Source of the DNA: Patescibacteria group bacterium
Lineage (GTDB): Bacteria; Patescibacteriota; Microgenomatia; UBA8517
Assembly (NCBI GenBank): GCA_025999275.1
Contig: AP024680.1
Location: 492,522 to 556,521, forward strand
Reading direction: 5' to 3'
DNA length: 64,000 bases
Notes under the pieces: model-generated
The model's database searches: none
The model's input: the letters and a program-made list of their open reading frames with translations, nothing else
Told to the model about the DNA's origin: nothing
Made by a program: the position numbers and the translations under genes
Shown: in pieces, positions 4,668 to 50,030 of the stretch
Layout: every line of letters begins with the position of its first letter
How positions within the stretch are numbered: the first letter of the stretch is position 1

Positions 4668-4679
4668 TTTTTCCTTCTC

Positions 4680-17565: not shown

Positions 17566-18243
17566 ATGAATAAAAAAAGCCGCATTTTTTGGTTTGTTTA
17601 CATCTTTTTTATTTTGTTTTTTTCTTTTAGTGTTTTTAAAAACGTCTTCTTTCAATTCTCTTTGACTAAACAGATTAACTCTTTTCTTTTTATTTCAAAT
17701 TTATTACAGAGACTTAGCGGGTCTGTTGCTCTTTTTCTTCTCTTTGTGCAAATAATATTTGGTGCTTATAGACCTAAACTTTCAAAATTGCTTGGCAATT
17801 GGGTGATGAATTTCCATATTTGGCAGGGAAGGGTAATTTATGTTTTGGTTTTGATTCACACATTTTCTTTACTTTTGTTTAATTTTATTTCAAAAAAGGG
17901 TTTTGACCCATTTTATGTTTTTGTTGATTTTTGTGTTTTATGTCAGACAAGAAAGGAATTGTTTTATTCTTTTGGCAGATTTGGTTTTTGGTTGTTGAAT
18001 TTAGCAATTCTTTCGGCTTTGGTGAGGAAAGATAATTGGTGGAGGCAAAACTGGCGATATTTCCACATCTTAAACTATTTTCTTTTTTTCTTAATTTCTC
18101 TTCACGCTTTCTTTATCGGTTCTGATTTTTCTTTGAGAGTTGGATATTTAGGAAAGTTGAATCTATTTTTTTCTATATTTGTTATTTCAGTCATTTTGGT
18201 TAGATTTTTTAATTGGTTTTTAAAGAATTTTAAACTGTCGTAG
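17566..18243 (+). CDS. Six-TM membrane protein with ferric-reductase-like (MsrQ/YedZ-type) bis-His heme b motifs
   Basis: Six predicted TM helices. His pairs 'FHIWQGRVIYVLVLIHTF' (H-x13-H) in TM3 and 'FHILNYFLFFLISLHAF' (H-x12-H) in TM5 match the FRD-domain heme-ligand layout. The start is 10 nt after tRNA-Val. Confidence 0.4.
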   Translation: MNKKSRIFWFVYIFFILFFSFSVFKNVFFQFSLTKQINSFLFISNLLQRLSGSVALFLLFVQIIFGAYRPKLSKLLGNWVMNFHIWQGRVIYVLVLIHTFSLLLFNFISKKGFDPFYVFVDFCVLCQTRKELFYSFGRFGFWLLNLAILSALVRKDNWWRQNWRYFHILNYFLFFLISLHAFFIGSDFSLRVGYLGKLNLFFSIFVISVILVRFFNWFLKNFKLS

Positions 18244-18314
18244 TACTATAAATCTTCTAGATTAGAAAATGTTTAGAGGTGCAGTTCTTTGAAGTAATTT
18301 TAATACCTCAATTA

Positions 18315-18551
18315 TCAGGGAATGCAGGTATAGTTGGGAAAACAATCAGGTTCACATTCTGTTTCAGGGTAACATTCTGGTCGACAAGATGGATTGCAGT
18401 TGGGATAACACAGAGGTGGCCAGCAATCTTCGTCTTCTGTTTCGCAACGTGGTGGCCAGCATCCGGGGCCACAATGGGGTTTACAATCATGCTCTTTTGT
18501 ATTTCTTGTTGTTACTAATTCTATTGTAGGTATTTGCTTTTGTTCTACCAT
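18315..18551 (-). CDS. Cys/Pro-rich RiPP precursor-like peptide (78 aa: 22-aa leader plus 12-Cys core)
   Basis: Translation from the ATG at 18551: MVEQKQIPTIELVTTRNTKEHD-CKPHCGPGCWPPRCETEDEDCWPPLCYPNCNPSCRPECYPETECEPDCFPNYTCIP. It lies 41 nt downstream of the rSAM/SPASM gene on the same strand and has no signal peptide. The ORF track merges it into a longer ORF (18315..18740) that overlaps the rSAM gene. The internal Met is the plausible start, but there is no obvious SD. Confidence 0.55.
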   Translation of the reverse strand: MVEQKQIPTIELVTTRNTKEHDCKPHCGPGCWPPRCETEDEDCWPPLCYPNCNPSCRPECYPETECEPDCFPNYTCIP

Positions 18552-18592
18552 CTTAAACTGTAAATAAATTTTAACTCTAGTTTGGTAAAAGT

Positions 18593-19876
18593 TCAACTTT
18601 CTATAGGAAAATATTCTGGTTCTCCTTTTTCGTTTTCTTTCCAAAGCCCTTTTCCCCATTCTCCTGTATATGGATTGTAAGTACATCTTGAGTAGGGGGC
18701 TAGGTAATTTCCAGAATTTCCAACAGATACCGGTCGGCAATCATTGCAGGCATAACGATATTCGCAATCTCTACATACAGGTATTTTATCTTTAGTTATT
18801 CTCCACACCTCTTGGGTTTCTTCTGATTCAGCAATTTCTTTTAGTGATTTTTCTTTAATATTTCCTAAAGCTCTTCTTCTATAGAAAACACAGGGTATTA
18901 CTTTACCATCGGGACAAATTGATAGTTTTCCAGCAAGGCAATTGTGCCAATACATATTTCTACGAAAAGATTTTTCGCTAGTTGAAAAATCTGGTCTCAT
19001 AAAAAGAGATATTTGTTTCCTTAGTTCCATGCTGGGAATTAGTCCAGAATTTTCTGAAGTATTGTCTGGTCTTATAATGTCTGGCATTCTTGTTAACATT
19101 CCTTCTTTTTTAAGCCATCTTATTAATTCTGATAATGTGTCTTCATTTTGTTTCATAGCTATTACAGCTATTCTTACTGGCACTTTGTTTCTTCTAAGAA
19201 TTTCTATAGCTTTCATTGTTTTTTCAAAACTTCCTTTTTTTTGAGTTATTGATTCATGAGTTTTAGGGTCGAGAGAATATAGGGAAAGGGCGACAGAAAC
19301 TTTGAGATCTCTTAATATTTGAATCTTTTTTTCATCTAGTAATGTGGCGTTGGTAAAGTATTCTATTTTTTCAATTCCTACTTTTCTCATTAGTTCAAGT
19401 AGATCGTATGAATTATTACCTTCTTCTCTGTATAGATCTGGTTCTCCACCTATGATAGTAGCTGCTTTTATGCTATTTTCCCCTAATTGCATGATGATAT
19501 TTCCCCAATCTTTGAAGGTTAGGCGATCTTCATTTCTAATAGTTGCAGGTCCGAATTTGCCGTAGCAATGAATACATCTTAAGTTGCATTTTTCTGTGAG
19601 TTCTAACCATACAAATGACAATTTAACTTCTGGTGGTATTTTTTCTTGCTCTTCTAGAGATTCTTTTGTTTTGACTGCTAAACCTAAATTAAATAGAGTT
19701 TCCCAGAAATCTTCGTTATAACTTCTTTTTGTAATTACTTCTATAGCAAGTGGATTTATAGAGTATACATTACCTTTTTCAAGGTCGTATAAAGCTCCTC
19801 GTAAAGCTCCCTCGACTAGTTTTACACTTGGGCGTAGATGCCAACTTGGAGATTCTGAACTTATTTCTTTAGACAT
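18593..19876 (-). CDS. Radical SAM/SPASM-domain peptide maturase with N-terminal PqqD-like RRE
   Basis: CX3CX2C motif 'CNLRCIHC'. C-terminal SPASM-type Cys cluster 'C..SICPDGKVIPC ... CRDCEYRYACNDC' (7 Cys, room for two auxiliary Fe-S clusters). The N-terminal ~90 aa ('GALYDLEKGNVYSINPLAIEVI') resemble a PqqD/RiPP recognition element. Confidence 0.85.
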   Translation of the reverse strand: MSKEISSESPSWHLRPSVKLVEGALRGALYDLEKGNVYSINPLAIEVITKRSYNEDFWETLFNLGLAVKTKESLEEQEKIPPEVKLSFVWLELTEKCNLRCIHCYGKFGPATIRNEDRLTFKDWGNIIMQLGENSIKAATIIGGEPDLYREEGNNSYDLLELMRKVGIEKIEYFTNATLLDEKKIQILRDLKVSVALSLYSLDPKTHESITQKKGSFEKTMKAIEILRRNKVPVRIAVIAMKQNEDTLSELIRWLKKEGMLTRMPDIIRPDNTSENSGLIPSMELRKQISLFMRPDFSTSEKSFRRNMYWHNCLAGKLSICPDGKVIPCVFYRRRALGNIKEKSLKEIAESEETQEVWRITKDKIPVCRDCEYRYACNDCRPVSVGNSGNYLAPYSRCTYNPYTGEWGKGLWKENEKGEPEYFPIES

Positions 19877-19949
19877 TTTAATAGGACAGATTATAATAGT
19901 ATTATACCTTATTTTTGGTTATTTTTCTATTTTTAATGTCTTTAATTAT

Positions 19950-21971
19950 TTAATTATCATCAAAATTAATTTCTTTTATTATGGGTAATTTGCCTTTGAT
20001 TTTATATTCTTTCCAAGAATAATCTCCGTTTTTTAGGAATTGGCCCACCAGGAGTGTTGATTCGCTGGAGAGTGGCAATATTCCTATTTTGTATTTTCCT
20101 GATTTTGGGTTTAGATAAGCTGCTACATTATTTTTGTCTTTTTTGATTTTGCCTTTTGTATCAATTGTCAAAAATGTGGCAGGGTGGGCAATTATTACTA
20201 ATGCAGAGTTTGGTTCTTCATTTGCTGTTGAAGTTAATCCTGTAGTATTAGCTTCTCCTTTTAGAAAATTTATAATTGTTTGGATTCCTTCTTGGGAGTA
20301 GACCAATCCACCGTGGTTTTGATTTATTTCAAAGTTTTGTGCCCCATCAACTTTAGCGCTTTTTGAAAGTACAGTCCCATCTCCCTGATACGTGGTTTCT
20401 TTTCCTGCTGGTTTTCCTTCTTCCCAAATTCCCTCCTTTTTCTCTTTTTTGTTTGGTTCTTTGACTTTAATATTTTCTAATGTTTCAAACCCATTGCCTG
20501 AAAGAGTGGCAATTATAGTGTTGGTTTGGGAAGGAAAATTGCTTTCAAGAAGCCATTTGTTTGTATCTACTCCTTTTAGTTGTCCGTTTCTGTCTCTTAA
20601 GAAAGTGTATGTAGGGAGTAAATCCTGAAAAGAAGGTGCGATGCTTCTTAAAGTTTCCATGTCATTTTTATGATTTATCCCACAGCGTTTAATCAAGAGT
20701 GTGGCAGCAATTTTTGTTACCAAACTGTTATTCCAAATTTGACCGCCATACCAAGCAGGGTAGGCAAGAGCTGTGCCTTGATGAGGTGATCCGGCTGAGA
20801 TGTATTTATAAATTTTATTATCGTTATTGTTTTCAATATAAGCCCTTCCAACCAGTCCTCCCATGCTATGTCCGACGAAATTGATTTTCTCATTTTCTAG
20901 TAGTTGCAGGTTGTTGAGGAGATTATCAATTTCTTGATTGTGGGAGGGTATATTTTTTCTCCAGTCATAGTAGAAAGGATAAACAGTAAAGCCGTTATCT
21001 TGAAGTGACGAGATTAAAGGTTGGTAAATATCTTCTGCAAAAGGTGCCATAGTCCAATTACCAGAATAGTTATCCAATTTGCAGTTTAAAATTGCATCTG
21101 TGTTCCAGCTCGCTCCCATTCCCGGTGCGAGAATGACTTTGGTTGGAGGAGGTGTTGGTGTAGGAGTAGGTGTGAGAGTGGGGGTAGGGATGGGGGTAGA
21201 AGTGGTGGTTGGTGTGGGAGTTTCAGTTTTTATTTTTTGGACTAGGACATTGTCAAATGTAGTAGTGTTAGGGGTTTGAGGCCACACCAAAAGTCCTACA
21301 GCTCCTTCATAGAAAGGAGTGTTTGTTGAAGTTTTCTTATCAATGTAATCTATTAGAAGGTTATTATCAACGTATACTTTAATTGATACATCCTCTGTTA
21401 TGTTTAAGACCTCAATCCGTATGTTGTAGTAGACATTTGGATAATTCTCAATTTTAGATGTTGCTAGGATTGACCCATAGTTGCTTTTTAGATCTGGTGA
21501 TTTGAACAAAACTATATCATTCCCATCTGAGGTGGCGTAATGGCTTCTTAGGTCTACTTCATAAGCTGATCTTGTTTCCTTATTAAAATAGAAGAAAATT
21601 GTTTTGTCTACATTGTCTATTCCTTTTATTTTTACTGAGAAGCTGTAGTTTTTCCAACTGCTGTCTCCATTGTATGTATAGGAGTTTCTCCTTGTATTTC
21701 CACTTGGGGAAGCTGTTCCTACATATTCGCCATTATCTACATACCAATCTCCATTAAATATTTCCTCAGTCCAATCATTTGAATTACCATCATTAAAATC
21801 GTCATAGAGTAATATACTGCTTTCTCCGTGTATACTGTTTGTGGGGTTAAAAAGAGGGAGAATCACGGTTGCAATTAGTATGAAGAGGATGGGTTTTAAT
21901 AAGGTAATTATATTTTTGTTACAGGATTTTGTTCTTTTCGGTGGGTGAGAAATACCAGAAGTTGTTATCAT
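19950..21971 (-). CDS. Secreted/membrane-anchored multidomain LCAT-like alpha/beta-hydrolase (lipase/phospholipase family) with N-terminal concanavalin-like (DUF1080-type) domain
   Basis: N-terminal hydrophobic anchor, then a jelly-roll domain ('SILLYDDFNDGNSNDWTEEIFNGDWYVDNGEYVG', 'YEVDL'). This is followed by a Thr/Pro linker 'TPTPTTTSTPIPTPTLTPTPTPTPPPT'. The hydrolase domain has 'ILAPGMGAS', the LCAT-family 'YDWR' motif and the nucleophile elbow 'GHSMGG'. Confidence 0.6.
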   Translation of the reverse strand: MITTSGISHPPKRTKSCNKNIITLLKPILFILIATVILPLFNPTNSIHGESSILLYDDFNDGNSNDWTEEIFNGDWYVDNGEYVGTASPSGNTRRNSYTYNGDSSWKNYSFSVKIKGIDNVDKTIFFYFNKETRSAYEVDLRSHYATSDGNDIVLFKSPDLKSNYGSILATSKIENYPNVYYNIRIEVLNITEDVSIKVYVDNNLLIDYIDKKTSTNTPFYEGAVGLLVWPQTPNTTTFDNVLVQKIKTETPTPTTTSTPIPTPTLTPTPTPTPPPTKVILAPGMGASWNTDAILNCKLDNYSGNWTMAPFAEDIYQPLISSLQDNGFTVYPFYYDWRKNIPSHNQEIDNLLNNLQLLENEKINFVGHSMGGLVGRAYIENNNDNKIYKYISAGSPHQGTALAYPAWYGGQIWNNSLVTKIAATLLIKRCGINHKNDMETLRSIAPSFQDLLPTYTFLRDRNGQLKGVDTNKWLLESNFPSQTNTIIATLSGNGFETLENIKVKEPNKKEKKEGIWEEGKPAGKETTYQGDGTVLSKSAKVDGAQNFEINQNHGGLVYSQEGIQTIINFLKGEANTTGLTSTANEEPNSALVIIAHPATFLTIDTKGKIKKDKNNVAAYLNPKSGKYKIGILPLSSESTLLVGQFLKNGDYSWKEYKIKGKLPIIKEINFDDN
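21127..21237 (-). repeat. Imperfect 6-nt (ACN-CCN) tandem repeat encoding the Thr/Pro linker
   Basis: The plus strand shows reiterated GGTGTN/GGGGTN units ('ggtgttggtgtaggagtaggtgtgagagtgggggtagggatgggggtag...'). This is a coding microsatellite-like tract inside the lipase gene. Confidence 0.5.
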
Positions 21972-22043
21972 TTGATTGAAATTAAGTATAATTTAATAAT
22001 AAAACTACAATATTATTATTTGTCAATAGTCATTACTAGGTAA

Positions 22044-23069
22044 ATGAAAGTTTTGATGATAACTAAATATTTTTTTCCTCACGTCGGAGGGGTGGAAAGA
22101 CATGTCCAAATGGTTTGTGATGAGCTGAGCAGACGAGGAATAAAATTTACTGTTTTGACAGAAAAGTTTAGTAAAGATTTGAAATCAATTGATATTCAAG
22201 ATAAGGTGAAAGTAGTTCGTTTTAATTATCCGCCGGTGAAGTTTGTTGGTATTATTTATATCTGGTTGTGGTTAATAAAGAATTCATACTTGATTAAGGA
22301 GACCGATTTAGTTCATATACATGATGTTTTTATTTGGTATTTACCATTGAGATTTTTGTTCCCCCGAAAGCCTGTTTATATAACCTTCCATGGTTATCCG
22401 TCCTTTCCGTTGAGCAGGAAAGCCGTTTTCTATCAGAGAATAGCTGAGAGACTTACTAAGGGCAATATTTGTGTTGGAGATTTTATTGGAAAGTGGTTTG
22501 GGACAACCCCAACCATAGTTACTTATGGGGGTATTGATATAAGGAAATCTTTGGATAGTAAATTTACTCTTAATAGTTCTAAGATTGCTTTTGTTGGTCG
22601 GCTAAGTAAGCAAGTTGGGACATTAGTTTTTAAGAGAATGGTTGATATCTTAAAAGAAAGAAAGATAAGTCTTGAAGCTGTGGCTGTGGGAGATGGAGAT
22701 CTCAGGAATGAGCTGACAAATGATGGAATAAAATGCAGAGGTTTTGTCTCAGACCCTTACCCTTTTATTAGGAGATCAACATTTGTTTTTGCAACTGGCT
22801 ATTTGTCAATATTGGAAGCTTTTTCTTGTAGAAAATTGGTTTTTGTTGCTTTCGAAGACCCTCTTAGAGAAGATTATCTTAAGATGACGCCGTTTTCTAA
22901 GTGGATGGTTATTAGTAATGATCCTGAAGAATTAGCTGATAAGGTTGAATATTATATTAAGAACCCCAAAAAAGCTCAGAAAAAAATTGATGCCGCCTAC
23001 AGGTGGGTTAAAAAACAGACTTGGAGCAAAATGGCTGACAATTACGAAAAACTTTGGGGTTTAAGGTAG
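22044..23069 (+). CDS. Glycosyltransferase family 4 (GT-B) protein
   Basis: 'MKVLMITKYFFPHVGGVERHV' is the typical GT4 N-terminus. The C-terminal half has a GT-B donor-binding region. Confidence 0.65.
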   Translation: MKVLMITKYFFPHVGGVERHVQMVCDELSRRGIKFTVLTEKFSKDLKSIDIQDKVKVVRFNYPPVKFVGIIYIWLWLIKNSYLIKETDLVHIHDVFIWYLPLRFLFPRKPVYITFHGYPSFPLSRKAVFYQRIAERLTKGNICVGDFIGKWFGTTPTIVTYGGIDIRKSLDSKFTLNSSKIAFVGRLSKQVGTLVFKRMVDILKERKISLEAVAVGDGDLRNELTNDGIKCRGFVSDPYPFIRRSTFVFATGYLSILEAFSCRKLVFVAFEDPLREDYLKMTPFSKWMVISNDPEELADKVEYYIKNPKKAQKKIDAAYRWVKKQTWSKMADNYEKLWGLR

Positions 23070-23348
23070 AATTCCTTTTCTTTGTAAATCTTCTGTTCTC
23101 TTAAAGGCTTCAAGGAGTCGGAGGATAGCTTGACCTTTGTTTTCACCAAAGGTTCTAATTGTAGTAGCGCCATGGGTATTTGTAATTTCTATGGAAATTT
23201 CTATTGCTTTCGCTTTTGATAAAGGGCCAATTATTTGTATTCCTATGCCCTCGTCGGTTTTGACCTGATAGCCAAAATAATCTCCTTTTTCTTCATTTTC
23301 TACTCTATTTGGTTGTTCGACGCTCATTTGCCTGAGAATTTTAGCCAT
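23061..23348 (-). CDS. Hypothetical 95-aa protein
   Basis: Non-repetitive, protein-like composition. Convergent with the GT4 gene (9-nt overlap). No recognisable motif and no clear SD. Confidence 0.3.
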   Translation of the reverse strand: MAKILRQMSVEQPNRVENEEKGDYFGYQVKTDEGIGIQIIGPLSKAKAIEISIEITNTHGATTIRTFGENKGQAILRLLEAFKRTEDLQRKGILP

Positions 23349-23437
23349 TTTATTTTGATATTTTAATATTGTTTAACAAAATCTGATCTGTATTCTTGGT
23401 TTTATATTTTTTGTTTTTGGTGTTAGTATTCTCTTAA

Positions 23438-24427
23438 ATGAAGGTTTCAGTTTGTATTACTGTTTTTAATGAAGAAAAAACTATTAGTCGGCTTTTGCAC
23501 GCACTTCTTGATCAAACTAAAAAGCCTGATGAGATAGTTATTGTTGATGGTGGTTCAACTGATAAAACAATTGAAATAATAAAGCACTTTCAGAAAAAAG
23601 ATGCGACTATTAAACTTTTGGTTGAAAAATGTTCTATCGCCAAAGGCAGAAATCTTGCTATTAGTCTTTCAAGAAATGAAATAGTTGCTTTAACTGATGC
23701 AGGTTGTGAGCCTTATTTAGATTGGCTTGAGAAGCTAGTTTATTTCTTTAAACATAAAGAGGTTGGAATAGCAGCTGGTTTTTATGATATGAGAACCACG
23801 AATCCCTTGAATAAAGTAATTTCCTGTTATCTTGGAGTTGTTGAGGAAAGATTTGATCCGACATCATTTTTGCCTTCAACCAGAAGTGTTGCTTTAAGAA
23901 AAAGTGTTTGGGAGGAGTTGTGTGGATTTGACGAGAGTCTTGAAAGTACTGGTGAGGACACTTTATTTTTTGCCAGAGCTGTGAAACAAGGCGTGAAAAT
24001 TGTTAGAGTGAAAGAGGCTAGGGTAGTGTGGTGGGAGATTGGAGAAATGAATCTTAGAACTTTCTTTAAAAAAGTTTTTAGTTATGCAAAAGGTGATGTA
24101 AAAACAGGAATTTGGCTCCATCCTTCCAAAGGCTTAATGTCGCACAATATAAAAGCAGTTTCCGTTTTTCTTCGTTATTTCTTATTCTTATTTTTGGCTT
24201 TTAAACTTTTTCAATCTTTCAGTTCTTACTTTTGGGTGATTTTTGTATTCTTTTTGTATCTTATTTGGCCAATTTACAAGTGGCGTGATGTTTTAAAAGA
24301 GAGAAAAGAAAGAATATTTTTACCCTTGGTTCAGGCGGTTTCTGATTTTGGTATTATGGGAGGTTTCTTGGCAGGTATTTGGGAAGGTTTGTTTTCTATC
24401 TTTAAGATATCTTTTAAGATAAAATAG
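23438..24427 (+). CDS. GT2 polyprenyl-phosphate glycosyltransferase (GtrB/DPM-synthase-like) with C-terminal TM helices
   Basis: 'VCITVFNEEKTISRLLHALLDQTKKPDEIVIVDGGSTDKT' is a GT2 N-terminal fold. 'DAGCE' and an 'ED'-containing segment, with two or more C-terminal hydrophobic helices as in GtrB/ArnC. Confidence 0.65.
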   Translation: MKVSVCITVFNEEKTISRLLHALLDQTKKPDEIVIVDGGSTDKTIEIIKHFQKKDATIKLLVEKCSIAKGRNLAISLSRNEIVALTDAGCEPYLDWLEKLVYFFKHKEVGIAAGFYDMRTTNPLNKVISCYLGVVEERFDPTSFLPSTRSVALRKSVWEELCGFDESLESTGEDTLFFARAVKQGVKIVRVKEARVVWWEIGEMNLRTFFKKVFSYAKGDVKTGIWLHPSKGLMSHNIKAVSVFLRYFLFLFLAFKLFQSFSSYFWVIFVFFLYLIWPIYKWRDVLKERKERIFLPLVQAVSDFGIMGGFLAGIWEGLFSIFKISFKIK

Positions 24428-24431
24428 CTTT

Positions 24432-25649
24432 ATGGGTTATTTGAAAGATGCTATTCGCGGTATTGGTTGGATGGCATTGTTGCGCGCTTTTACTAGAGGT
24501 CTTGCTTTTGTAAGACTTGCAATTTTGGCAAGGCTACTTGATCCTTTTCAGTTTGGAATTTATGGTATTGCTTCTTTGATTCTTGCACTTCTTGAAATTT
24601 TTACAGAAACTGGGGTGAACATAGTTCTTGTTCAATCAAAATCAAAAATAACTGATTATTTAAATACAGCTTGGGTAGTCTCTATAGCAAGAGGAGTAGC
24701 CATTTCTATTTTGATGTTAATTTTTTCCTATCCAGTTTCTATTTTTTTTAAAAACCCACAATCTTTAGGGATTATATTATTTTTGAGTATAGTTCCGTTC
24801 TTAAGAGGTTTTATAAATCCAATGATAGTTAATTTTCAGAAAGAATTGGAGTTTAAAAAAGAATTCGTTTTTAGGTCAGTAATCTTTTTATTTGATGCTT
24901 TTGTTGCTATTGCTTTTGGTTTTATAACAAGGTCGGCTTACAGTCTTGCTTTTGGTTTGATGGCTGGAGCATTGCTTGAAATTTTCCTTTCTTTTTATTT
25001 GGTTAAGCCTACCCCCTCGTTTAAATTTGAGAAGGAAAAACTATTGTATGTTATAAGAAATGGTAAATGGATGACTTTTGCTGGTATTTTTGATTATTTT
25101 TTTAGAAACGGTGATGATATGGTGGTTGGCAGGATTCTGGGTGCTTCTTCATTGGGTTTGTATCAAGTTGCTTACAAGATCTCAACTCTTCCTGTTTCGG
25201 AAACAGGTCAGGTGTTTAATAAGGTCACTTTTCCTCTTTTTACTAAGATATCTAAGGATAAAAAGCTTCTTAAATCAACCTTTTGGAAGTCTTTATTTGC
25301 TGTTTCTGTTTTTGTTTTACCTTTTGGTTTAGTGCTTTTTTTGTTTGCCCATATACTTGTGCCACTAGCTTTGGGGGCAAAATGGGTTGAAATTATACCT
25401 GTCGTTCGTATCCTTGCTCTATTTGGAATAGCAAGTTCTCTACAAGGACCATTTTATTCTCTTTTTCTTGGGGTTGGTAGACAAAATTATGTTACTTACG
25501 CTTCTTTCTTGGGATTTCTAATTATGATCTTATCTATTGTTCCTTTGGTTGTGAGGTTTGGAATTGTTGGAGCGGCAGTCTCTGCTCTTTTGGGAAGTTT
25601 GGTTTCTTTTCCGCTTGTGATTTACTATTTTTCTAAAATTATAAAATGA
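24432..25649 (+). CDS. Wzx-type oligosaccharide flippase (MOP superfamily polysaccharide biosynthesis protein)
   Basis: 405 aa with about 12 TM segments. Composition and spacing are typical of PST/Wzx family members, and it sits inside the glycosyltransferase cluster. Confidence 0.5.
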   Translation: MGYLKDAIRGIGWMALLRAFTRGLAFVRLAILARLLDPFQFGIYGIASLILALLEIFTETGVNIVLVQSKSKITDYLNTAWVVSIARGVAISILMLIFSYPVSIFFKNPQSLGIILFLSIVPFLRGFINPMIVNFQKELEFKKEFVFRSVIFLFDAFVAIAFGFITRSAYSLAFGLMAGALLEIFLSFYLVKPTPSFKFEKEKLLYVIRNGKWMTFAGIFDYFFRNGDDMVVGRILGASSLGLYQVAYKISTLPVSETGQVFNKVTFPLFTKISKDKKLLKSTFWKSLFAVSVFVLPFGLVLFLFAHILVPLALGAKWVEIIPVVRILALFGIASSLQGPFYSLFLGVGRQNYVTYASFLGFLIMILSIVPLVVRFGIVGAAVSALLGSLVSFPLVIYYFSKIIK

Positions 25650-26404
25650 TGGATTTTGATGAAAGAGTTATTCCAGGTATAACTGCCAATTTTCAATTTA
25701 AAGAATCTTTAGCCCGTTATGAATTTGCTTCGAAGATTTTAAAGGGTGGTTCTTATGTTCTTGATCTTGGTTGTGGAACAGGATATGGCAGTGATTTTTT
25801 ATCAAGAAAATTTAATGTGATAGGAATTGACATTAATAAGGAAGCTATATCTTTTGCTAAGAAACATTATCCCAATTCTGCTAGATTTCTTGTTGGTGAT
25901 GTTTGTCGACTGCCTTTTGAAAGGGAAGAGTTTGATGCTATTTGTTCTTTTGAAGTTATTGAGCATATCAAAAATCCTAAAGATATGCTTTCTGAGGTTC
26001 TAAGAGTTTTAAAGAAGAGGGGATTGTTTGTTATGTCAACACCAAAAAAGGGAAAGAAAGTTATTAGTCCTTATCATTTTAAGGAGTATACCAAGGTTGA
26101 GCTTGAAAATCTTTTGAGACTTTATTTTAGTAAAGTGGAAATATTTGGGCAGTGTAAAAACAAAAAGGCTAAAAAAGCTTTTCTTGATTTCTTAAAGTCT
26201 CAACAGGCAAGGGAAAAGGTTGTAAGAAATGATGTTTTGGGTTTAAGGAGACTGTTCCCCAAGATTTTAAAAGAAAAAATCTGGAAGTATGTGGGCAACT
26301 TTTTTGGTAGAAGAAGCCAGGAATCTCTTGAAACTTCAGATTTTCCAATTGGAGCTTTTCGCCAAGAAGAGTCTGAATTTTTGATTGCAGTATGCCAGAA
26401 ATAA
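25646..26404 (+). CDS. Class I SAM-dependent methyltransferase
   Basis: Motif I 'VLDLGCGTGYGS' and motif II 'FDAICSFEVIEH'. Confidence 0.7.
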   Translation: MMDFDERVIPGITANFQFKESLARYEFASKILKGGSYVLDLGCGTGYGSDFLSRKFNVIGIDINKEAISFAKKHYPNSARFLVGDVCRLPFEREEFDAICSFEVIEHIKNPKDMLSEVLRVLKKRGLFVMSTPKKGKKVISPYHFKEYTKVELENLLRLYFSKVEIFGQCKNKKAKKAFLDFLKSQQAREKVVRNDVLGLRRLFPKILKEKIWKYVGNFFGRRSQESLETSDFPIGAFRQEESEFLIAVCQK

Positions 26405-27276
26405 AAGTTTCGATAATTATAGTTTATTATGACGGCACGGAGTCTCTTTTTAATTGTCTTAATTCAATTAAAAAGTATCCTCCCAGTTTTCCTTATGAAG
26501 TTATTGTTGTTGATAATAATGAAAAGAAGGTTATTGAAAGGGAGCTTAAGAAAGATTTTGGATGGGTAAAGTATATCAAATCTCCGAAGAATTTGGGCTA
26601 TGGAGCCGGTAATAACTTAGGGGTTAAATATTCAAGAGGCGAATATATTTTAATCTTGAATCCGGACACTAAGGTCAAAAAGGGTTCAATTGATAAATTA
26701 ATTGATTTTCTTGATAGAAATAAAGACGTTGGTGTAGTTGCTCCAAATTTAATTGACGATAAAGGCAGGGTTTTTCAACAACTTGGTTCAAGGGAGCTAA
26801 CTCCAATTAGAGGTGTTTTTGCGCTTTCTTTTTTGAATAAGATTTTTCCCAATAACCCAATTTCTAGAGGTTATTATCTTTATGATGTGCCGATGGATCA
26901 AAAAAGAGAGGCTGATGTTGTTCCCGGCTCTGCCTTTTTGATAAGAAGAAGTGTTTTTCAAGAAGTAGGTGGTTTTGATGAAAACATTTTTCTTTTTTTT
27001 GAAGAAAGTGATTTGGGCAGAAGAATAAGAAAAGCAGGGTATAAATTATTCATAATTCCTGATTCTGAAATTTTTCATTTTTGGAAGGGTAAGGGGGATG
27101 GTTCTGATAAATTAAAAAGAATCTTTAGGGAGAGCAGATTTTATTATTTTAAGAAGCATTTTGGTATATTTTCTGCTGTTTTGGTTGAAATTTTTGCCAG
27201 ATTTTCAAAGAGGATTTTTATTTTTATGATCATTTTCGTATTTTTTATTTTTGTTTTATATAATTTGTTAAGATAA
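26392..27276 (+). CDS. GT2 glycosyltransferase with C-terminal TM segment
   Basis: 'VSIIIVYYDGTESLFNCLNSI' and 'VIVVDNNEKK' form a GT2 Rossmann region. It has a DxD-like 'NPDT' and a hydrophobic C-terminus. Confidence 0.65.
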   Translation: MPEIKVSIIIVYYDGTESLFNCLNSIKKYPPSFPYEVIVVDNNEKKVIERELKKDFGWVKYIKSPKNLGYGAGNNLGVKYSRGEYILILNPDTKVKKGSIDKLIDFLDRNKDVGVVAPNLIDDKGRVFQQLGSRELTPIRGVFALSFLNKIFPNNPISRGYYLYDVPMDQKREADVVPGSAFLIRRSVFQEVGGFDENIFLFFEESDLGRRIRKAGYKLFIIPDSEIFHFWKGKGDGSDKLKRIFRESRFYYFKKHFGIFSAVLVEIFARFSKRIFIFMIIFVFFIFVLYNLLR

Positions 27277-27278
27277 TC

Positions 27279-28040
27279 ATGATTACAGCTGTGGTCTTGA
27301 CTAAAAATGAGGAAAAAAGTATTAAAGATTGCCTTAAAAGTCTTTCTTTTTGCGACGAGATAATTTTGGTTGATGATTATTCTACTGATAAAACTATTCA
27401 AATAGCATCTTTGTCTGGAGCAGTTGTTTTAAGAAGGAATTTAAATAATGATTTTTCTTCCCAAAGAAATTTTGGGCTTGATAAGGCAAATGGCCCTTGG
27501 GTTTTGTTTGTTGACGCTGATGAGAGGATTCCTGAGAATTTGAAGCTTGAGATTATAAGTAAGATAAATGATCCGGTTAATAAAAATGTTGGCTATTTTA
27601 TTAAAAGAAGAACTTTTTTTCTTGGCAAAGAGCTAAAATTTGGACAAATATCGCAGGATAAAGTTTTAAGATTAGCGAAGAAAGATGCTGGTCGATGGAA
27701 GAGAAAAGTTCATGAGTTTTGGGACATAAAAGGTAGAGTTGATAATTTAAGAAACCCGCTTGATCATTTTACCTGTAATAGTTTGGATGATTTTGTCCAC
27801 AAAATTAATGTTTATTCTGATATTCACGCAGAATCATTACTCGAAGAAAAAAAATACTCAAATCTTTTTAAGATTATTTTTTATCCGCCTTTTAAGTTTT
27901 TTGATAATTTTATTTTGAAGAGAGGATTTTTAGATGGAGTTTATGGCTTGGTTTTTGCTCTTCTGGCTAGTTTTCATTCGTTTTTAGGTTGGAGTAAATT
28001 ATGGCTTTTACAAAGAAATACAAAATTGAAGAAATATTAG
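27279..28040 (+). CDS. GT2 glycosyltransferase
   Basis: 'ITAVVLTKNEEKSIKDCLKSL' and 'IILVDDYSTDKT' form a GT2 fold, and 'VDADERIP' contains a DxD. Confidence 0.65.
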   Translation: MITAVVLTKNEEKSIKDCLKSLSFCDEIILVDDYSTDKTIQIASLSGAVVLRRNLNNDFSSQRNFGLDKANGPWVLFVDADERIPENLKLEIISKINDPVNKNVGYFIKRRTFFLGKELKFGQISQDKVLRLAKKDAGRWKRKVHEFWDIKGRVDNLRNPLDHFTCNSLDDFVHKINVYSDIHAESLLEEKKYSNLFKIIFYPPFKFFDNFILKRGFLDGVYGLVFALLASFHSFLGWSKLWLLQRNTKLKKY

Positions 28041-29200
28041 TTTTTGCCTTTTTGGCCGCTTTTCCTTTTGGTAGGCTTTTGGCTTTCGAATTTTCTTTAT
28101 TTGGCTTTCGCGTGTCTTTTGTTTTTCTTGACTTTATTGCATTTTTGGGTTCTCTTTTGTTTATTTATTTAAATCGAAATAGGCTTAAATTTTTAGACTC
28201 TAACTTCTTAACTTTTGTCTTTCCTTTTTTGTTTTCTTTTTTGTTTTCAATATTTATCTTTAGAGATATCAGAATTTTATTTGGTACTTTTTACTTAGTA
28301 AGAATTTTTTCTTATTTGGGCTTTTATTTTTTTATTAAGGATTTTTTAAAGAGCTCGAAAGACAATAAAAAATTATTGGAGAATAGTTTATTTTTAATAC
28401 TTTTATTTTCTTTATTATTTGGCTTTTTTCAATATTTTTTTTATCCCGACTTAACCTCACTTAAATTTTTGGGGTGGGATGATCATCTTTATCGTATGAC
28501 TGGAAGTTTTCTTGACCCTGGCTTTACCGGAATTATCTTTGTTTTTGGTTTTATATTTTCTTGGGCGAAATTTAGAAGCAATAAATCTAAGAAGTTTTTA
28601 TTTTTTTCTTTGTTGTTTTTAATTGGTATTTCTTTAACCTTTTCTAGGGCGAGTTATTTATCTTTGGTTGTTTCTTTTTTCTATTTTTCTTATCTTAAGA
28701 AGGAGAAGTGGCTTTATGGAGTTTTGTTTGTGGTTATTCTTTTGTTGCTTTTATTATTTATTCCAAAACCTGCTGGAGAAGGTGTTAATTTGGCTCGTCT
28801 TTATAGTGTTTTTGATAGAATAGAAAACTACAGGGAGACATATTTAATTTTTTCCCAATCCCCGATTTTTGGAGTTGGTTTTAATAATCTTTGCCTTGCC
28901 AAAAATATTTATTTTGGAAACGATAATTTTCAGTCGCATAGTTGTGGTGGTTCTGATTCTTCTTTGCTTTTTGTGGTTTCAACCTTGGGAGTTGTTGGTT
29001 TTATGATTTTGATACATCTGGGGCTTGAAATTTGGAGGAAAATAAAAAAGGATGGTTTTGGGATGGTGTTGAGATCTTTTATTATTGCTCTTTTTTTACA
29101 TAGTCAGTTTAATAACAGCTTGTTTTATCCATGGATATTGGCAATTTTGGTGATTGCTTTTGTCTTGGAGTTTAATTCTACTTCCAAAATTGAACCGTAA
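28001..29200 (+). CDS. Wzy_C/O-antigen-ligase-like polytopic membrane protein (candidate O-oligosaccharyltransferase or polymerase)
   Basis: About 10-12 TM segments with a central loop 'LTFSRASYLSLVV' like the Wzy_C (WaaL/PglL/Wzy) signature region. It is the last gene of the GT cluster. Confidence 0.55.
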   Translation: MAFTKKYKIEEILVFAFLAAFPFGRLLAFEFSLFGFRVSFVFLDFIAFLGSLLFIYLNRNRLKFLDSNFLTFVFPFLFSFLFSIFIFRDIRILFGTFYLVRIFSYLGFYFFIKDFLKSSKDNKKLLENSLFLILLFSLLFGFFQYFFYPDLTSLKFLGWDDHLYRMTGSFLDPGFTGIIFVFGFIFSWAKFRSNKSKKFLFFSLLFLIGISLTFSRASYLSLVVSFFYFSYLKKEKWLYGVLFVVILLLLLLFIPKPAGEGVNLARLYSVFDRIENYRETYLIFSQSPIFGVGFNNLCLAKNIYFGNDNFQSHSCGGSDSSLLFVVSTLGVVGFMILIHLGLEIWRKIKKDGFGMVLRSFIIALFLHSQFNNSLFYPWILAILVIAFVLEFNSTSKIEP

Positions 29201-29894
29201 GCCGTTCGATTTTTTTGTTTCCGGCTTTATCTTCAGCGACGATTTCAAAGTCATTATTTCCTTCCTGAAGTGTGACTGCGTAAGTAAAGCTGCCGTCGTT
29301 TTCGATTATAACTATTCTATCGTTTATTTTAAGAGTATCAGCATCTTTTACTTTTCCCTGGATTACTATCTGTCTTTGTTTTGAACCGTAAAATGATGCT
29401 CCATCCTGAGGGGAATAAATAGTTATTTCTGGTGGTTCGTTATCATAATTTATTGTATACGTTGATGTTGGCTGGCTTTCGTTGCCAGAGTTATCTTTTG
29501 CGATAAATGAGATTTTATTTTCGCCGTTTTTGAGAGAAAAAGTGTAAGTAAATAACCCATCTTTTCCTGAAACAATTTCCTCTGTTTGTGAATTGGCTTG
29601 GACAATGATAGTAATTCCAGGTTCAGTTGTTCCCTTTATTTCTATTTTGGGCTGATTAGTGTATTCTGTTGGAACTTGAATATTGGGGACTGCTGGGGGA
29701 ATGGTATCTTGTTTTTCTATTGGTTTTGTACCTTTTCTTAATTCTGAGACAAAAGAAGCAGTTTTTACTATTAATGGAATTCCTAGAAAAATAAAGACGG
29801 CAATGGCGACAATGGTCAAAAAGATGTAAAGACTAGCCTTTCTGATATTTCTTTTTTCTTGAGTTATTATCCTTCTTGAATAAAAGTTGTTCAT
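29178..29894 (-). CDS. Membrane-anchored surface protein with two Ig-like/beta-sandwich domains
   Basis: Starts at Met 'MNNFYSRR' and has a TM anchor 'LYIFLTIVAIAVFIFLGIPLIV'. Two beta-sandwich modules follow (e.g. 'PPEITIYSPQDGASF...DGSFTYAVTLQEGNNDFEIVAEDKAGN'), with Ser/Thr-rich segments. The track ORF extends to 29960, but that extension reads through the tRNA-Thr gene. Confidence 0.5.
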   Translation of the reverse strand: MNNFYSRRIITQEKRNIRKASLYIFLTIVAIAVFIFLGIPLIVKTASFVSELRKGTKPIEKQDTIPPAVPNIQVPTEYTNQPKIEIKGTTEPGITIIVQANSQTEEIVSGKDGLFTYTFSLKNGENKISFIAKDNSGNESQPTSTYTINYDNEPPEITIYSPQDGASFYGSKQRQIVIQGKVKDADTLKINDRIVIIENDGSFTYAVTLQEGNNDFEIVAEDKAGNKKIERLTVQFWK

Positions 29895-29902
29895 AATTTG
29901 AG

Positions 29903-29974
29903 AGCCGATGAGAGGAGTTGAACCTCTAACCTCTCCCTTACGAAGGGATTGCTCTGCCATTGAGCTACATCGGC
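29903..29974 (-). tRNA. tRNA-Thr (anticodon CGT)
   Basis: Hand-folded on the minus strand. Acceptor GCCGATG/CATCGGC, D-arm GCTC-AATGGCA-GAGC, anticodon arm ATCCC-TTCGTAA-GGGAG (one A.G mismatch at 27-43), T-arm AGAGG-TTCAACT-CCTCT. Confidence 0.8.
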
Positions 29975-30013: not shown

Positions 30014-30727
30014 TTAGTATCCAGAAAACTTTTCTGTTCTTAATTTATTTATGCTAGCTTTTGCTAATTCTTCCTCGAGTGCACTTACAAAACTTGGTGG
30101 GCCGCAAAGCCAAAAGGCAGCTTTTGATGTTTGATCTTTGCCGACAAGTGAGATTATGGTTTCTTTATTAAGACGACCAGTCAAACCATTCCACTTTTGT
30201 TTTGATTCTTCTGGGCGAGTTATGGTGATATCTAGTTTTATAATCTTTTCTTTTGACCAATTCTCAAGTTCGTTTTTGAAAGTTATTTCTTCGGTCGTAG
30301 AGCAGGAATAAATCAAGTGAATTGGTGTTTTAAATCTTTTATCAACTTTGTACTTAATCATACTTCTAAATGGAGTTATGCCAATACCTCCGGCGATAAA
30401 AATTTGCGTTTTGTCATCTTCTTTACTAAGACAAAAGTCTCCAATTGGACCTTTATATTTAATGGAATCACCTAATTTTAACGAGTCAAGCGTCATTTTA
30501 TAACCTGACTCTTTCCTTATCTTGGTGGTGATTGCTATTTTTTCTTCAGTGGGAGAAGAACTTATAGTAAAATGTCGAGTGTTTCCTCGATTATCTTTGA
30601 ATTTTAGCTTTGGTAAGGTTAGATATATAAATTGTCCTGCCTTAAAGTTAAAACCTTTTGGTTTCTCAAAGAAAAAAGTCTTAATGTTTTCTGCCTCTTC
30701 CTTTTTGCCGCAAATAGTAAACTCCAT
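30014..30727 (-). CDS. Ferredoxin-NADP+ reductase-like FAD/NAD(P)-binding oxidoreductase
   Basis: FAD-binding 'RHFTISSSP' (RxYS-type) and 'GPIGDF', NAD(P)-binding 'FIAGGIGITPFRSM', and a C-terminal 'CGPP'. This is an FNR-like two-domain fold. Confidence 0.6.
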   Translation of the reverse strand: MEFTICGKKEEAENIKTFFFEKPKGFNFKAGQFIYLTLPKLKFKDNRGNTRHFTISSSPTEEKIAITTKIRKESGYKMTLDSLKLGDSIKYKGPIGDFCLSKEDDKTQIFIAGGIGITPFRSMIKYKVDKRFKTPIHLIYSCSTTEEITFKNELENWSKEKIIKLDITITRPEESKQKWNGLTGRLNKETIISLVGKDQTSKAAFWLCGPPSFVSALEEELAKASINKLRTEKFSGY

Positions 30728-41859: not shown

Positions 41860-43177
41860 TCTTATTCCTGTAATTGGACTTGAAGTTCATATTGAGCTTG
41901 CAACTAAAAGTAAAATGTTCTGCCGTTGTTCGGCTGATCATTTTGCTAAAAAGCCGAATACTCAAGTATGTCCTGTTTGTTTGGGTTTGCCCGGAGCTTT
42001 ACCTTATGCTAATAGACAAGCAGTGCTTGATACAATCAAATTTGGGCTTTCTTTCGGTTGCAATATTAATCTTTTTAGCAAATTTGATCGGAAGCATTAT
42101 TTTTATCCAGATCTTCCTAAGGGGTATCAAATTAGTCAGTATGATCTACCTCTTTGTTATGGAGGAAACTGGATTTTGAAAAATGGTAAAAAGGTTCGAA
42201 TAAGGAGAATTCACCTAGAAGAAGACACGGCCAAGATAGTTCATCAGAAAGTAAATAATGAGGAAGTAAGTCTTCTTGATTTTAACAGAAGTGGTGTGCC
42301 TTTAATGGAGATGGTTACAGAGCCTGATTTTAGCGAGCCTGATGATATTGTTGAATTCTTGAAGAATGTCCAGTTAAATGTGAGGTATTTGGGAATTTCT
42401 TCAGCTGATATGGAAAAAGGTTCGATGAGACTTGAAGCCAATATTTCTTTGAAAAAGAATACTGATCCTGTTGATTTTCTTCCTGATTACAAAGTTGAGC
42501 TTAAGAACATAAATTCATTTAGATTTTTAGAAAAAGCTGTAAATGCTGAGATTAGAAGACAGGTTGAGGTTTTGTCTTCTGGCAATAAGCCTATTCAGGA
42601 AACTCGAGGTTATAATGAAGAGATTGGTTTAACTTTTTCTCAAAGAGTAAAAGAAGAAGCTCAGGATTATCGTTATTTTCCTGAACCAGACATACCGCCT
42701 CTTAAATTCGACTCTGCCGAGATTAATGAAATTAAAAAACAAATTCCAGAACTGCCCAATCAAAAAAAGAATAGATTCGTTAGAGAATTTTCTTTGCCAG
42801 AGAATTATGCTGAAGTTTTGATATCTGATCTTCAGAAAGCTAATTATTTTGATGAAGCAGTTAAGCTAGGTAAAAAATATAACTTATCTGCCTTATTTTT
42901 AGCTGATTTGATTGTTAACAAAAAGATGAATGAGCAGTTTCCAGAGCCGGCAGGTTTGGTTAAAAAGGCGGTAGAATTATCAAAGAGGGATTATGCCTCG
43001 CATGAGGAAACATTAGAATCTGTAAAGGAAGTCTTAAAAGAGCAGGTTAAAGCTGTATCTGATTTTAATGCGGGTAAGGGAAGCGTGATAGGATTTTTAA
43101 TCGGTATGGTACAAAAGAAGCTTAAAGGAAAAGGTGATGCAAGATTGATAGACAAGCTTTTAAGGGAAAATATTTGA
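41849..43177 (+). CDS. gatB: Aspartyl/glutamyl-tRNA amidotransferase subunit B
   Basis: '[22 protein letters not shown]' is the GatB N-terminus, and there is a C-terminal YqeY/GatB domain. TTG start with SD 'AAAGGAGA'. Confidence 0.9.
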
Positions 43178-43815
43178 ATATGGAAAGTCCTACTGCAGAG
43201 AAGCGTATTAGTTGGTACTTAAAAGGCCCTAGGGGAACGGGTGACTATGAAGCTCCCAATGTATTGGAATTAAAGAAAAAGGCATTTAAAGATCCTCTTA
43301 CCAATCTTAATAACAGAGAAGGTTTAAGAGAAATTTTTGGTAAATATCTAGAGATTTATAAAAGAAATATCCAGAATGCGAGTTTGAGAGTTTTTTTGAT
43401 TGATTTAGATGGGTTTAAGAGAGTAAATGATCGGCTTGGCCATAAGGTGGGTGATAGTCTTCTTGAGTCATTGGCTGGTAGGTGGCAAAAATCCTTAAGG
43501 CAGGAAGATGTATTAGCTAGAATAGGGGGCGATGAATTTGTTGTTTTAGCTTTTACAGGTGAGGAAGTGCCTATATTAGAAAGATTGAGAGAAGGTTTCT
43601 CTGAAGCGGTCAGGATGCTCAATCTACCTGGTGATTTAGAGGTTGGTTTTAGTATTGGCAGCGCTAGGATTGGGGAGGGATTAAATGAATCAGGGGAAAA
43701 AATAGAATTTGATATTAACAATACAGATGCCAAAGTTTTACTTGAGTCAGCTCTAAGATTGGCAGATAAAAATATGTATAATGACAAGAGCTCTAAGAAA
43801 GATGAAAGACAATAA
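43174..43815 (+). CDS. Stand-alone GGDEF-domain protein (putative diguanylate cyclase)
   Basis: '[16 protein letters not shown]' and intact 'RIGGDEF' active-site motif. No sensor or TM domain. Confidence 0.8.
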
Positions 43816-49601: not shown

Positions 49602-50030
49602 GTGATCAAGAAAAGGACTAGTGGTATTTTTTGGGAAGATGCCACCGATGTTAAAAGAAAAATAGAAATGATCAAAGAAGGCGGCGAGTTTTCTTGGCTT
49701 GATTTGGAAGCTATAACTTGTTTACGTTCTTATGGTTCTAAATCAAGAGCAATTGCTAGAATTTGGGGGTTACCAAAGCTGTGGCAAAAAGTCTTGAAGT
49801 TAAAGCCGCATTATGTCATTGAGGTAGTTTCCGAAAAATATGACAAATTAAATAACCAACAAAAAGAGGATGTCCTTTTGCACGAGATTGCTCATATTCC
49901 CAAAAACTTTTCTGGTTCCTTAGTGCCTCATTATCGTAAGGGAAGAAGGAAGTTTAAAGATTTGGTTAAAAATTTAAAATTAAGGTATCATTTGGATTAT
50001 GGAAATAATAGTTCTTCAAGGAGAAGATAA
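49602..50030 (+). CDS. Hypothetical protein with HExxH-like motif ('LLHEIAHI'), putative minimal zinc metallopeptidase
   Basis: Single HExxH motif, 142 aa, basic C-terminus. No further family assignment is possible by eye. Confidence 0.3.
   Translation: MIKKRTSGIFWEDATDVKRKIEMIKEGGEFSWLDLEAITCLRSYGSKSRAIARIWGLPKLWQKVLKLKPHYVIEVVSEKYDKLNNQQKEDVLLHEIAHIPKNFSGSLVPHYRKGRRKFKDLVKNLKLRYHLDYGNNSSSRRR

Follow-up and report, generated by a model that had tools for sequence, protein, structure and literature searches.

At positions 22044 to 29200 of a 64,000-nucleotide stretch of DNA (the window) from a Patescibacteria group bacterium (GenBank assembly GCA_025999275.1, contig AP024680.1, positions 492,522 to 556,521 of the forward strand), we identified a cluster of genes for glycosyltransferases, a Wzx-type flippase and a membrane protein with a Wzy_C domain. 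Our preferred reading, put forward tentatively, is that the cluster is a locus for a surface glycoconjugate, passed on vertically and part of the core gene content of Woesebacteria and other Microgenomates, and that its Wzy_C protein is a ligase of the WaaL fold with a protein as the preferred acceptor. Machinery of this kind, in which a Wzx-dependent glycan pathway ends with a WaaL-type ligase, is well known. What is modestly unusual is its class-wide conservation in tiny genomes and the invariant pairing of the Wzy_C protein with a membrane protein of 238 amino acids (aa) that contains Ig-like domains. A literature search returned no paper describing this locus in the candidate phyla radiation (CPR).

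The host of the window is a metagenome-assembled genome of the Patescibacteria (CPR), close to Woesebacteria, and the relatives of the 399-aa Wzy_C protein were found under the names Candidatus Woesebacteria, Microgenomates or Patescibacteria. The envelope chemistry of these bacteria is almost unknown, and their episymbiotic life relies on surface contacts. A first-pass annotation had proposed that the cluster makes a lipid-linked glycan that is flipped by Wzx and transferred outside the cytoplasm, in an organism without signs of lipopolysaccharide (LPS), and this outline was upheld. Since the host shows no sign of LPS, lipid A-core cannot be the acceptor of the Wzy_C protein. The 8 open reading frames (ORFs) were all found at the coordinates reported earlier, and the Pfam matches agreed with the families assigned to them (GT4, 3 GT2, Wzx, methyltransferase, Wzy_C). 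The features of the locus, with E-values unless bit scores are given, are as follows.

22044 to 23069, + strand: glycosyltransferase of family 4 (GT4), 341 aa; PF13439, 1.7e-15; PF00534, 1.7e-9
23061 to 23348, - strand: ORF of 95 aa; no family match
23438 to 24427, + strand: membrane-embedded glycosyltransferase of family 2 (GT2), 329 aa, GT-A domain and three C-terminal helices; PF00535, 3e-26; PF13632
24432 to 25649, + strand: Wzx-type MOP flippase, 405 aa; PF13440, 4e-67; PF01943, 6e-30
25646 to 26404, + strand: class I S-adenosylmethionine (SAM)-dependent methyltransferase, 252 aa; PF08241, 3.9e-25
26392 to 27276, + strand: GT2, 294 aa, one C-terminal hydrophobic helix; PF00535, 1.6e-21
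27279 to 28040, + strand: GT2, 253 aa; PF00535, 1.8e-19
28001 to 29200, + strand: membrane protein of the Wzy_C domain family and WaaL fold, 399 aa, 12 transmembrane (TM) helices; PF04932, 43.6 bits (cutoff, 31.7)
29178 to 29894, - strand: membrane-anchored protein, 238 aa, two Ig-like domains; Glucodextran_B, 4e-23; Big_13; Big_6
29902 to 29974, - strand: tRNA-Thr(CGU), the boundary of the locus; ARAGORN; Rfam tRNA, 66.6 bits

The Wzy_C domain of the 399-aa protein was recovered above the gathering threshold of PF04932 (E = 3.4e-11), with residues 202 to 338 aligned to positions 2 to 149 of the 149 positions in the model, as the first-pass annotation had expected. Its AlphaFold2 model (pLDDT 87.1, pTM 0.90) contained 12 long hydrophobic helices, and the only significant match in the PDB in a Foldseek comparison was the WaaL O-antigen ligase 7tpg_B (E = 1.9e-5, probability 1.0, TM-score 0.56), followed by a match with an E-value of 0.27. 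Neither the sequence nor a 41-member profile matched any of the PDB chains, and WaaL was thus found by fold comparison only. PHROGs and NCBIfam provided nothing useful for this protein. Database entries for the family are already annotated as "O-antigen ligase family protein".

The topology was derived on the assumption that the N-terminus is located inside, which gives short inside loops that contain 2 to 4 Lys/Arg residues each. In an alignment of 41 sequences, 65 positions were conserved in at least 90%, of which 47 were located in outside loops and only M1 in the inside segments. The conserved outside positions included 12 in a loop with the motif GWDDHxxR and 23 in a 67-residue loop at residues 254 to 320, which is the large outside loop between TM9 and TM10, as in the WaaL fold. 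The WaaL residues R215, R288 and H338 are essential, and they are conserved in PglL (PMC3643930). A local hhalign alignment of the family profile to WaaL of Escherichia coli K-12 (E = 0.0075 to 0.011, 175 columns) placed R216 on R215 and R273 on R288, whereas H313 was aligned to H338 only in a greedy, low-confidence extension. The local alignment alone was usable, as global hhalign against WaaL failed and the register obtained with MAFFT --add was meaningless. R216 was invariant among the 41 sequences, and R273 and H313 were conserved in at least 90% of them.

Based on sequence comparisons and the structural model, we favor the prediction that the Wzy_C protein is an extracytoplasmic ligase that transfers the glycan en bloc, rather than a polymerase. 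This is because the similarity is to WaaL only, because the equivalents of the Arg-Arg-His residues are conserved, because no chain-length regulator was found and because the enzyme remains constant while the accessory glycosyltransferases change. The E-values in hhalign comparisons to 2 E. coli polymerases, WbbH (0.37) and WzyE (0.13), were similar to that for WzxE (0.3), which served as the negative control. No Wzz or polysaccharide co-polymerase (PCP) protein, nor any other chain-length regulator, was identified among the ORFs scanned in the window. Across relatives with different accessory glycosyltransferases, the Wzy_C protein could be aligned at 31% to 62% identity with 29 invariant columns.

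A classical Wzx/Wzy pathway was considered as an alternative, since a Wzx gene and a PF04932 gene in the same operon is the textbook arrangement of such a pair and PF04932 takes in both polymerases and ligases. The 399-aa protein would then be the polymerase, the polymer would be attached to the wall by an enzyme encoded elsewhere, such as an LCP protein, and the Ig-like protein would help in polymerization or set the chain length; as a bitopic membrane protein that is always adjacent, it could act as a functional analog of Wzz. We consider this to be quite unlikely, given that the likeness in fold and profile is to WaaL and at noise level to the E. coli polymerases, that the Arg-Arg-His equivalents of WaaL and PglL are retained and that neither a PCP/Wzz-family gene nor an LCP gene was detected in the window. 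Furthermore, the level of conservation described above, despite a changing presumed repeat unit, would be unusual for Wzy.

The genes on the + strand consist of the GT4 gene, which stands alone, and a tightly packed operon of 6 genes from 23438 to 29200 with junctions of +4, -4, -13, +2, and -40 nucleotides. The cluster had been annotated as a unit of 8 genes, and all 8 genes are present, but they do not form a single unit, as the 95-aa "hypothetical" ORF is encoded on the minus strand. This ORF had no match in Pfam, NCBIfam or PHROG and was retained as a protein, with 48% to 52% identity, only in the 2 closest species (L003 and L006). The cluster is interrupted by this ORF, for which no role in the pathway is indicated. 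A scan for promoters and terminators yielded 26 hits versus 25.4 expected, which is at chance level, and gave no operon boundary. The match of the flippase to PF13440 spanned residues 31 to 323, and the protein agreed with the full-length Polysacc_synt description of MOP flippases. In NCBIfam, it matched the MOP flippase PRK10459 (1.2e-50), below the equivalog cutoff of that model, and TuaB (1e-35). The methyltransferase presumably methylates a sugar.

One genome per species was scanned, which yielded 338 loci encoding relatives. The best 80 of these were titled Woesebacteria, Microgenomates, Shapirobacteria, Patescibacteria or, in third party annotation (TPA) records, "uncultured Gammaproteobacteria". 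The latter titles (e.g. L007, L010, and L012) are probably placeholder taxonomy, because these loci share the PolX-LemA-M48 and LysM synteny of Woesebacteria. The window proteins were searched with tblastn against all loci, and the counts for upstream genes were taken from the 54 loci with at least 6 kb of flanking sequence.

The gene for the 253-aa GT2 protein was located upstream of the Wzy_C gene in all 54 loci, and it was immediately adjacent in 69 of 74. Its 3' end overlapped the start of the Wzy_C gene by 4 to 40 nucleotides in almost all loci, and this protein is the conserved partner glycosyltransferase of the Wzy_C protein. Upstream genes for Wzx and for the 329-aa membrane GT2 were present in 45 and 43 of the 54 loci, respectively, followed by the 294-aa GT2 (22/54), the GT4 (18/54) and the methyltransferase (8/54). 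The most constant neighbor of the Wzy_C gene was the Ig-like gene, which was located downstream on the opposite strand in 57 of 58 loci, adjacent in 73 of the 77 with enough flanking sequence, and with a conserved tail-to-tail overlap. The locus is thus a vertically inherited core, consisting of the membrane GT2, Wzx, the 253-aa GT2, Wzy_C and the Ig-like protein, to which variable decorating enzymes have been added. Its retention beside core housekeeping genes in about 80 sampled species, with genomes of about 0.8 Mb, makes it probable that the product is a core glycoconjugate of the cell surface.

The variable part was seen to differ even between close relatives. In the sibling strain L001, with 97% to 99% nucleotide identity, the GT4 gene was deleted except for the last ~76 codons and the N-terminal LamG-like domain of the nearby lipase was swapped, and the blocks that differed from the window, 18222 to 19963 and 21224 to 22840, represent recombination hot spots that flank the conserved operon. 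An unrelated ORF of 130 aa was found in L001 in place of the gene for a radical SAM/SPASM protein (18593 to 19876, - strand). It was also noted that the 3' end of the gene for this 427-aa enzyme, which is absent from the sibling strain, is overlapped by a 141-aa ORF with a TTG start, and the region (18315 to 19876, - strand) could be a peptide-maturase locus. In the closest other species, L003, the GT4 gene was split into 2 ORFs, and the methyltransferase and the 294-aa GT2 were missing.

Related loci carried 1 to 3 methyltransferases. The Woesebacteria locus L005 contained 3 SAM methyltransferases (221 to 997, 4242 to 5081, and 5078 to 5905) and a PTPS_related membrane protein (1 to 154) beside the core, which suggests that the glycans of some species are heavily methylated and that additional transferases act on the outside.

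The cluster had previously been described as an island, which does not hold in the sense of horizontal transfer: comparisons of strains and species showed that the locus is syntenic across the lineage. The GC content is about 0.35 throughout the window and 0.29 to 0.34 over the glycan cluster, and the GC skew is strongly positive and stays at the same level across the cluster, so that its composition carries no signature of foreign DNA. Taken together, the synteny and the composition rule out a mobile or horizontally acquired island. The strong conservation also agrees with one half of another possibility raised in the first-pass annotation, namely that this is a conserved locus of the cell-wall type.

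We propose the following pathway, which proceeds from directly observed features: the protein families and folds, the topology, the conserved outside residues, the packing of the operon and the pattern of conservation. A polyprenyl-diphosphate carrier would be primed by a phosphoglycosyltransferase encoded elsewhere, and a short oligosaccharide would be extended at the cytoplasmic face, with the membrane GT2 and the 253-aa GT2 as the putative conserved extenders. The GT4, the 294-aa GT2 and the methyltransferase may add species- or strain-specific decorations, as suggested by gene content and conservation. The Wzx protein, which is assigned to its family, would flip the glycan to the outer face, where the ligase-type Wzy_C protein is predicted to transfer it en bloc to an outside acceptor. 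Variable accessory glycosyltransferases, combined with a triad of the 253-aa GT2, Wzy_C and Ig-like genes that recurs in the same order in about 80 related species, would fit a ligase for which only the reducing end of the glycan matters. In the last and weakest step, the acceptor may be a protein, which would make the enzyme an O-oligosaccharyltransferase (O-OTase) with the 238-aa Ig-like protein as its dedicated substrate or obligatory partner.

A protein acceptor is plausible because O-OTases encoded next to their substrates are well known (PMC12645811; PMC3643930). The TfpO, TfpM, and PglS enzymes usually adjoin the gene for their substrate (PMC12645811), and the same is true for 21 of 31 PglL homologs (PMC3643930). 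The Ig-like and Wzy_C genes converge, with an overlap of 23 nucleotides at their 3' ends. We noted that the first 22 codons of the 260-aa ORF called for this gene overlap the tRNA-Thr gene at 29902 to 29974, and that the peptide MAEQSLRKGEVRGSTPLIGSQI is tRNA-Thr(CGU) read as protein (29895 to 29974, - strand). The true start is M23 of this ORF, at position 29894, because the tRNA overlaps the 5' extension and because the orthologs are almost all 238 aa in length, as was the case for nearly all of the 86 homologs. The same 260-aa miscall was present in public gene calls (L001, P0241). A match to the CPR pilus protein PamR in NCBIfam (E = 0.0014; 17.6 bits, far below the cutoff of 300) was rejected as generic similarity of the Ig fold. 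We consider the Ig-like protein a candidate acceptor or partner of the Wzy_C protein.

Several observations weigh against a protein acceptor, and some of them against the pathway as a whole. The Ig-like protein was expected to have Ser/Thr-rich segments, and although it is membrane-anchored and adjacent as predicted, its Ser and Thr content was 15.1%, compared to 16.5% in the neighboring oxidoreductase, and no low-complexity tract was found. Beyond a short DTxPPxP linker between the domains, it contains no acceptor region rich in Ser, Thr, Ala or Pro. Being convergent, its gene is not co-transcribed with the Wzy_C gene. In a mirror-tree comparison, the Wzy_C and Ig-like trees had a raw correlation of 0.65 and a partial correlation of 0.24, which is not distinctive, as the value for the unrelated FNR-like neighbor was 0.36, and the comparison was not counted as evidence. 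Adjacency is itself weak evidence of function, because the whole neighborhood is syntenic, including the flanking genes for LysM (47/58 loci), PolX (30/58 loci), and the FNR-like protein (26/58 loci).

The likeness to WaaL is weak in absolute terms, with an hhalign probability of 5%. Flanking PglL_A and/or Wzy_C_2 domains mark the O-OTases PglL and PglS (PMC12645811; PMC3643930), and Wzy_C alone cannot separate O-OTases from WaaL (PMC12645811). Both PglL_A (PF15864) and Wzy_C_2 (PF11846) were absent from the 399-aa protein, for which PF04932 was the only Pfam match at E ≤ 0.01. The earlier proposal of a general O-OTase is plausible as one of three live readings, but the domains specific to PglL are absent.

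The locus as encoded is without an initiating phosphoglycosyltransferase, either of the WecA/MraY (PF00953) or of the PglC/WbaP (PF02397) type, and the pathway is thus incomplete. The only PF00953 protein identified by Pfam in the window was MraY of the division and cell wall (dcw) cluster, at 3612 to 4667. Searches by tblastn with MraY, E. coli WecA and a PglC sequence detected only MraY in the window and nothing in 85 related loci with up to ±10 kb of flanking sequence. With no initiating enzyme in the window or in these loci, the lipid-linked donor can therefore only be presumed. The missing gene is not fatal to the pathway, since wecA of E. coli likewise lies apart from the O-antigen (rfb) cluster, in the cluster for the enterobacterial common antigen.

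No genes for nucleotide-sugar synthesis were found within the cluster either, and the claim that every component is present is wrong. A phosphogluco/phosphomannomutase (PGM/PMM) and a phosphoglucose/phosphomannose isomerase of the bifunctional type (PGI/PMI, bact-PGI_C) are encoded at 50677 to 53084 (+ strand), 21 kb downstream. These were the only enzymes for sugar-phosphate precursors in the window, and there was no nucleotidyltransferase among the ORFs scanned.

The membrane GT2 bears on the nature of the acceptor. The model of this 329-aa protein (pLDDT 92.8) consists of a GT-A domain and C-terminal TM helices, an architecture that fits the GtrB/DPM1/ArnC class. However, the best matches of the whole chain were to hyaluronan synthase (8snc, TMq 0.72), PcManGT (0.59) and BcsA (0.56), and GtrB, DPMS and ArnC were absent from the top 50 Foldseek matches. 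A profile of 37 homologs searched against the PDB gave 1.4e-20 for chondroitin synthase, compared to 2.3e-6 for GtrB, 7.9e-5 for DPMS and 5e-4 for ArnC. The description of this enzyme as GtrB-like thus has no specific support, as generic and synthase-like GT2s scored far better than these proteins in the sequence as well as the fold searches. Weak matches to ceramide glucosyltransferase (3e-4) were also obtained, and homologs carry PF13506. The protein is a membrane-embedded GT2 whose own acceptor is probably lipid-linked.

A glycolipid is about equally plausible as the acceptor, because of the precedent of TacL (PMC5727136) and the synthase-like membrane GT2. In the Gram-positive Streptococcus pneumoniae, which lacks LPS, the 397-aa Wzy_C protein TacL transfers teichoic acid from undecaprenyl diphosphate to a glycolipid (PMC5727136). 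By analogy, the Wzy_C protein may put the glycan on a membrane glycolipid, giving a lipoglycan or a product similar to lipoteichoic acid; the GT2 at 23438 to 24427 could make the anchor, and the Ig-like protein would be a neighbor or accessory. We regard this as a serious if somewhat doubtful possibility. It agrees with the finding that WaaL, the sole match among solved structures and the sole E. coli profile match above noise, is a ligase with a lipid acceptor, as well as with the resemblance of the membrane GT2 to membrane-integrated synthases and with the lack of typical acceptor tracts in the Ig-like protein. Yet it leaves the invariant pairing with the Ig-like gene unexplained, and the ORFs scanned in the window included no genes of the teichoic acid type (polyol-phosphate, LicD-like or a separate polymerase). 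TacL was likened to the Wzy_C protein by size and domain description rather than by direct sequence comparison. Moreover, CPR bacteria are generally thought to be limited in lipid synthesis.

The closest solved relatives of the 253-aa GT2 were GmaR (6.9e-19), SunS (4.5e-10), and ThuS (6e-9), which act directly on proteins or peptides. This raised the question of whether the enzyme glycosylates a protein in the cytoplasm, such as the tail of the Ig-like protein, while Wzx and Wzy_C serve a separate glycan. The cytoplasmic N-terminal tail of the Ig-like protein is conserved, including a Ser at position 6. We find this explanation very improbable: the matches to GmaR, SunS, and ThuS cover only the generic N-terminal GT-A half, the hydrophobic C-terminal helix of the protein and the 4 to 40 nucleotide overlap with the Wzy_C gene point to a shared lipid-linked pathway, and no direct evidence for it was found.

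The 294-aa GT2 showed 60% identity to the N-terminal GT2 domain of a 758-aa GT2-PMT_2 fusion protein in L004, and 21 of its 28 homologs were 700 to 774 aa in length. According to Pfam, the long form is a fusion of GT2 and PMT_2 (GT-C) in both L004 (7006 to 9282) and L005 (7017 to 9218). In the window, the protein extends no further than one hydrophobic helix, with the next gene beginning 2 nucleotides further on, and the GT-C half has either been cleanly lost or was never gained.

Returning to the preferred reading of a ligase with a protein acceptor, a more far-reaching version is that the triad of 253-aa GT2, Wzy_C and Ig-like genes is a class-wide CPR module, either for O-glycosylation with one enzyme for one substrate or for an obligatory complex of a ligase and its partner, comparable to SEDS-bPBP or Wzy-Wzz. 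This is a speculative proposal that we think is rather unlikely to hold. If true, the triad would be the first defined surface-glycoconjugate machinery of the Microgenomates. The flippase, the 2 conserved GT2s, the ligase and the candidate acceptor make up a compact gene set for reconstitution. The nearby lipase had also been suggested as an acceptor. It does contain a TP-rich linker, but it was found beside the locus in only ~6 of 80 loci and was rejected as a linked acceptor.

The remaining genes in the window are housekeeping genes. They include the dcw cluster (MraW, PBP, MraY, FtsW, MurG, FtsA, and FtsZ) and RodA, as well as genes for ParB, signal peptidase, IMPDH, PolX, LemA, GatA/B, DnaE, RuvC, LexA, UvrAB, glycolysis, PGM/PMM, and PGI/PMI. 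A ferric-reductase-like transmembrane protein (PF01794) is encoded upstream of the glycan locus (17566 to 18243, + strand) and an FAD/NAD-binding oxidoreductase (PF00970/PF00175, with a weak match to a ferric-reductase NAD domain) downstream of it (30014 to 30727, - strand). These 2 genes bracket the locus here and in about 12 related species (e.g. L003, L006, L008, L014, and L015), and they look like the halves of a split NOX/Fre-type system. A 142-aa protein (49602 to 50030, + strand) that matched "Putative phage metallopeptidase" (PF18894, 1.5e-20) is encoded in an otherwise housekeeping stretch, with RuvC on one side and a DNA polymerase III delta-like gene on the other. Finally, the gene for a 213-aa protein with a GGDEF diguanylate cyclase domain (43174 to 43815, + strand) ends 35 nucleotides inside the start of dnaE, which points to c-di-GMP signaling in a CPR genome of about 0.8 Mb.

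The locus resembles Wzx/Wzy clusters for O-antigen and capsule, such as rfb in E. coli, in that glycosyltransferases, Wzx and a PF04932-type protein are encoded in one operon and the priming enzyme elsewhere. In contrast to such clusters, it contains no sugar-nucleotide genes or chain-length regulator and shows no likeness to E. coli polymerases, and it is class-wide rather than hypervariable. With GtrB/GtrA/GT-C systems it shares a GT2 with C-terminal TM helices and, in most relatives, the fusion of the third GT2 to PMT_2. However, the GT-C half is absent from the copy in the window, no specific likeness to GtrB was seen for the membrane GT2, and the flippase is of the Wzx rather than the GtrA type.

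The O-OTases PglL, PglS, TfpO (PilO), and TfpM have the Wzy_C core and the Arg-Arg-His residues in common with the 399-aa protein (PMC3643930), and the usual location of TfpO, TfpM and PglS genes beside the substrate gene (PMC12645811) may have a parallel in the adjacent Ig-like gene, a candidate acceptor gene. Unlike in these systems, which were compared by description, the Ig-like neighbor is not a pilin, is encoded on the opposite strand and has no low-complexity acceptor region. Gram-positive bacteria also have O-OTases for S-layer proteins, namely WsaB and WsfB. The likeness to TacL of S. pneumoniae consists of a Wzy_C membrane protein of similar size (397 versus 399 aa) that acts after a Wzx-type flippase in a bacterium lacking LPS (PMC5727136), whereas no teichoic acid genes are located near the locus in the window; TacL too was compared by description. 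WaaL, both from E. coli K-12 and from Cupriavidus (7TPG), has the same fold with 12 TM helices, the outside loop between TM9 and TM10, the equivalents of the Arg-Arg-His residues and the PF04932 domain. The Wzy_C protein differs from WaaL in having no match to solved chains at the sequence level, and in that its gene overlaps that of a partner GT2 and converges with the Ig-like gene.

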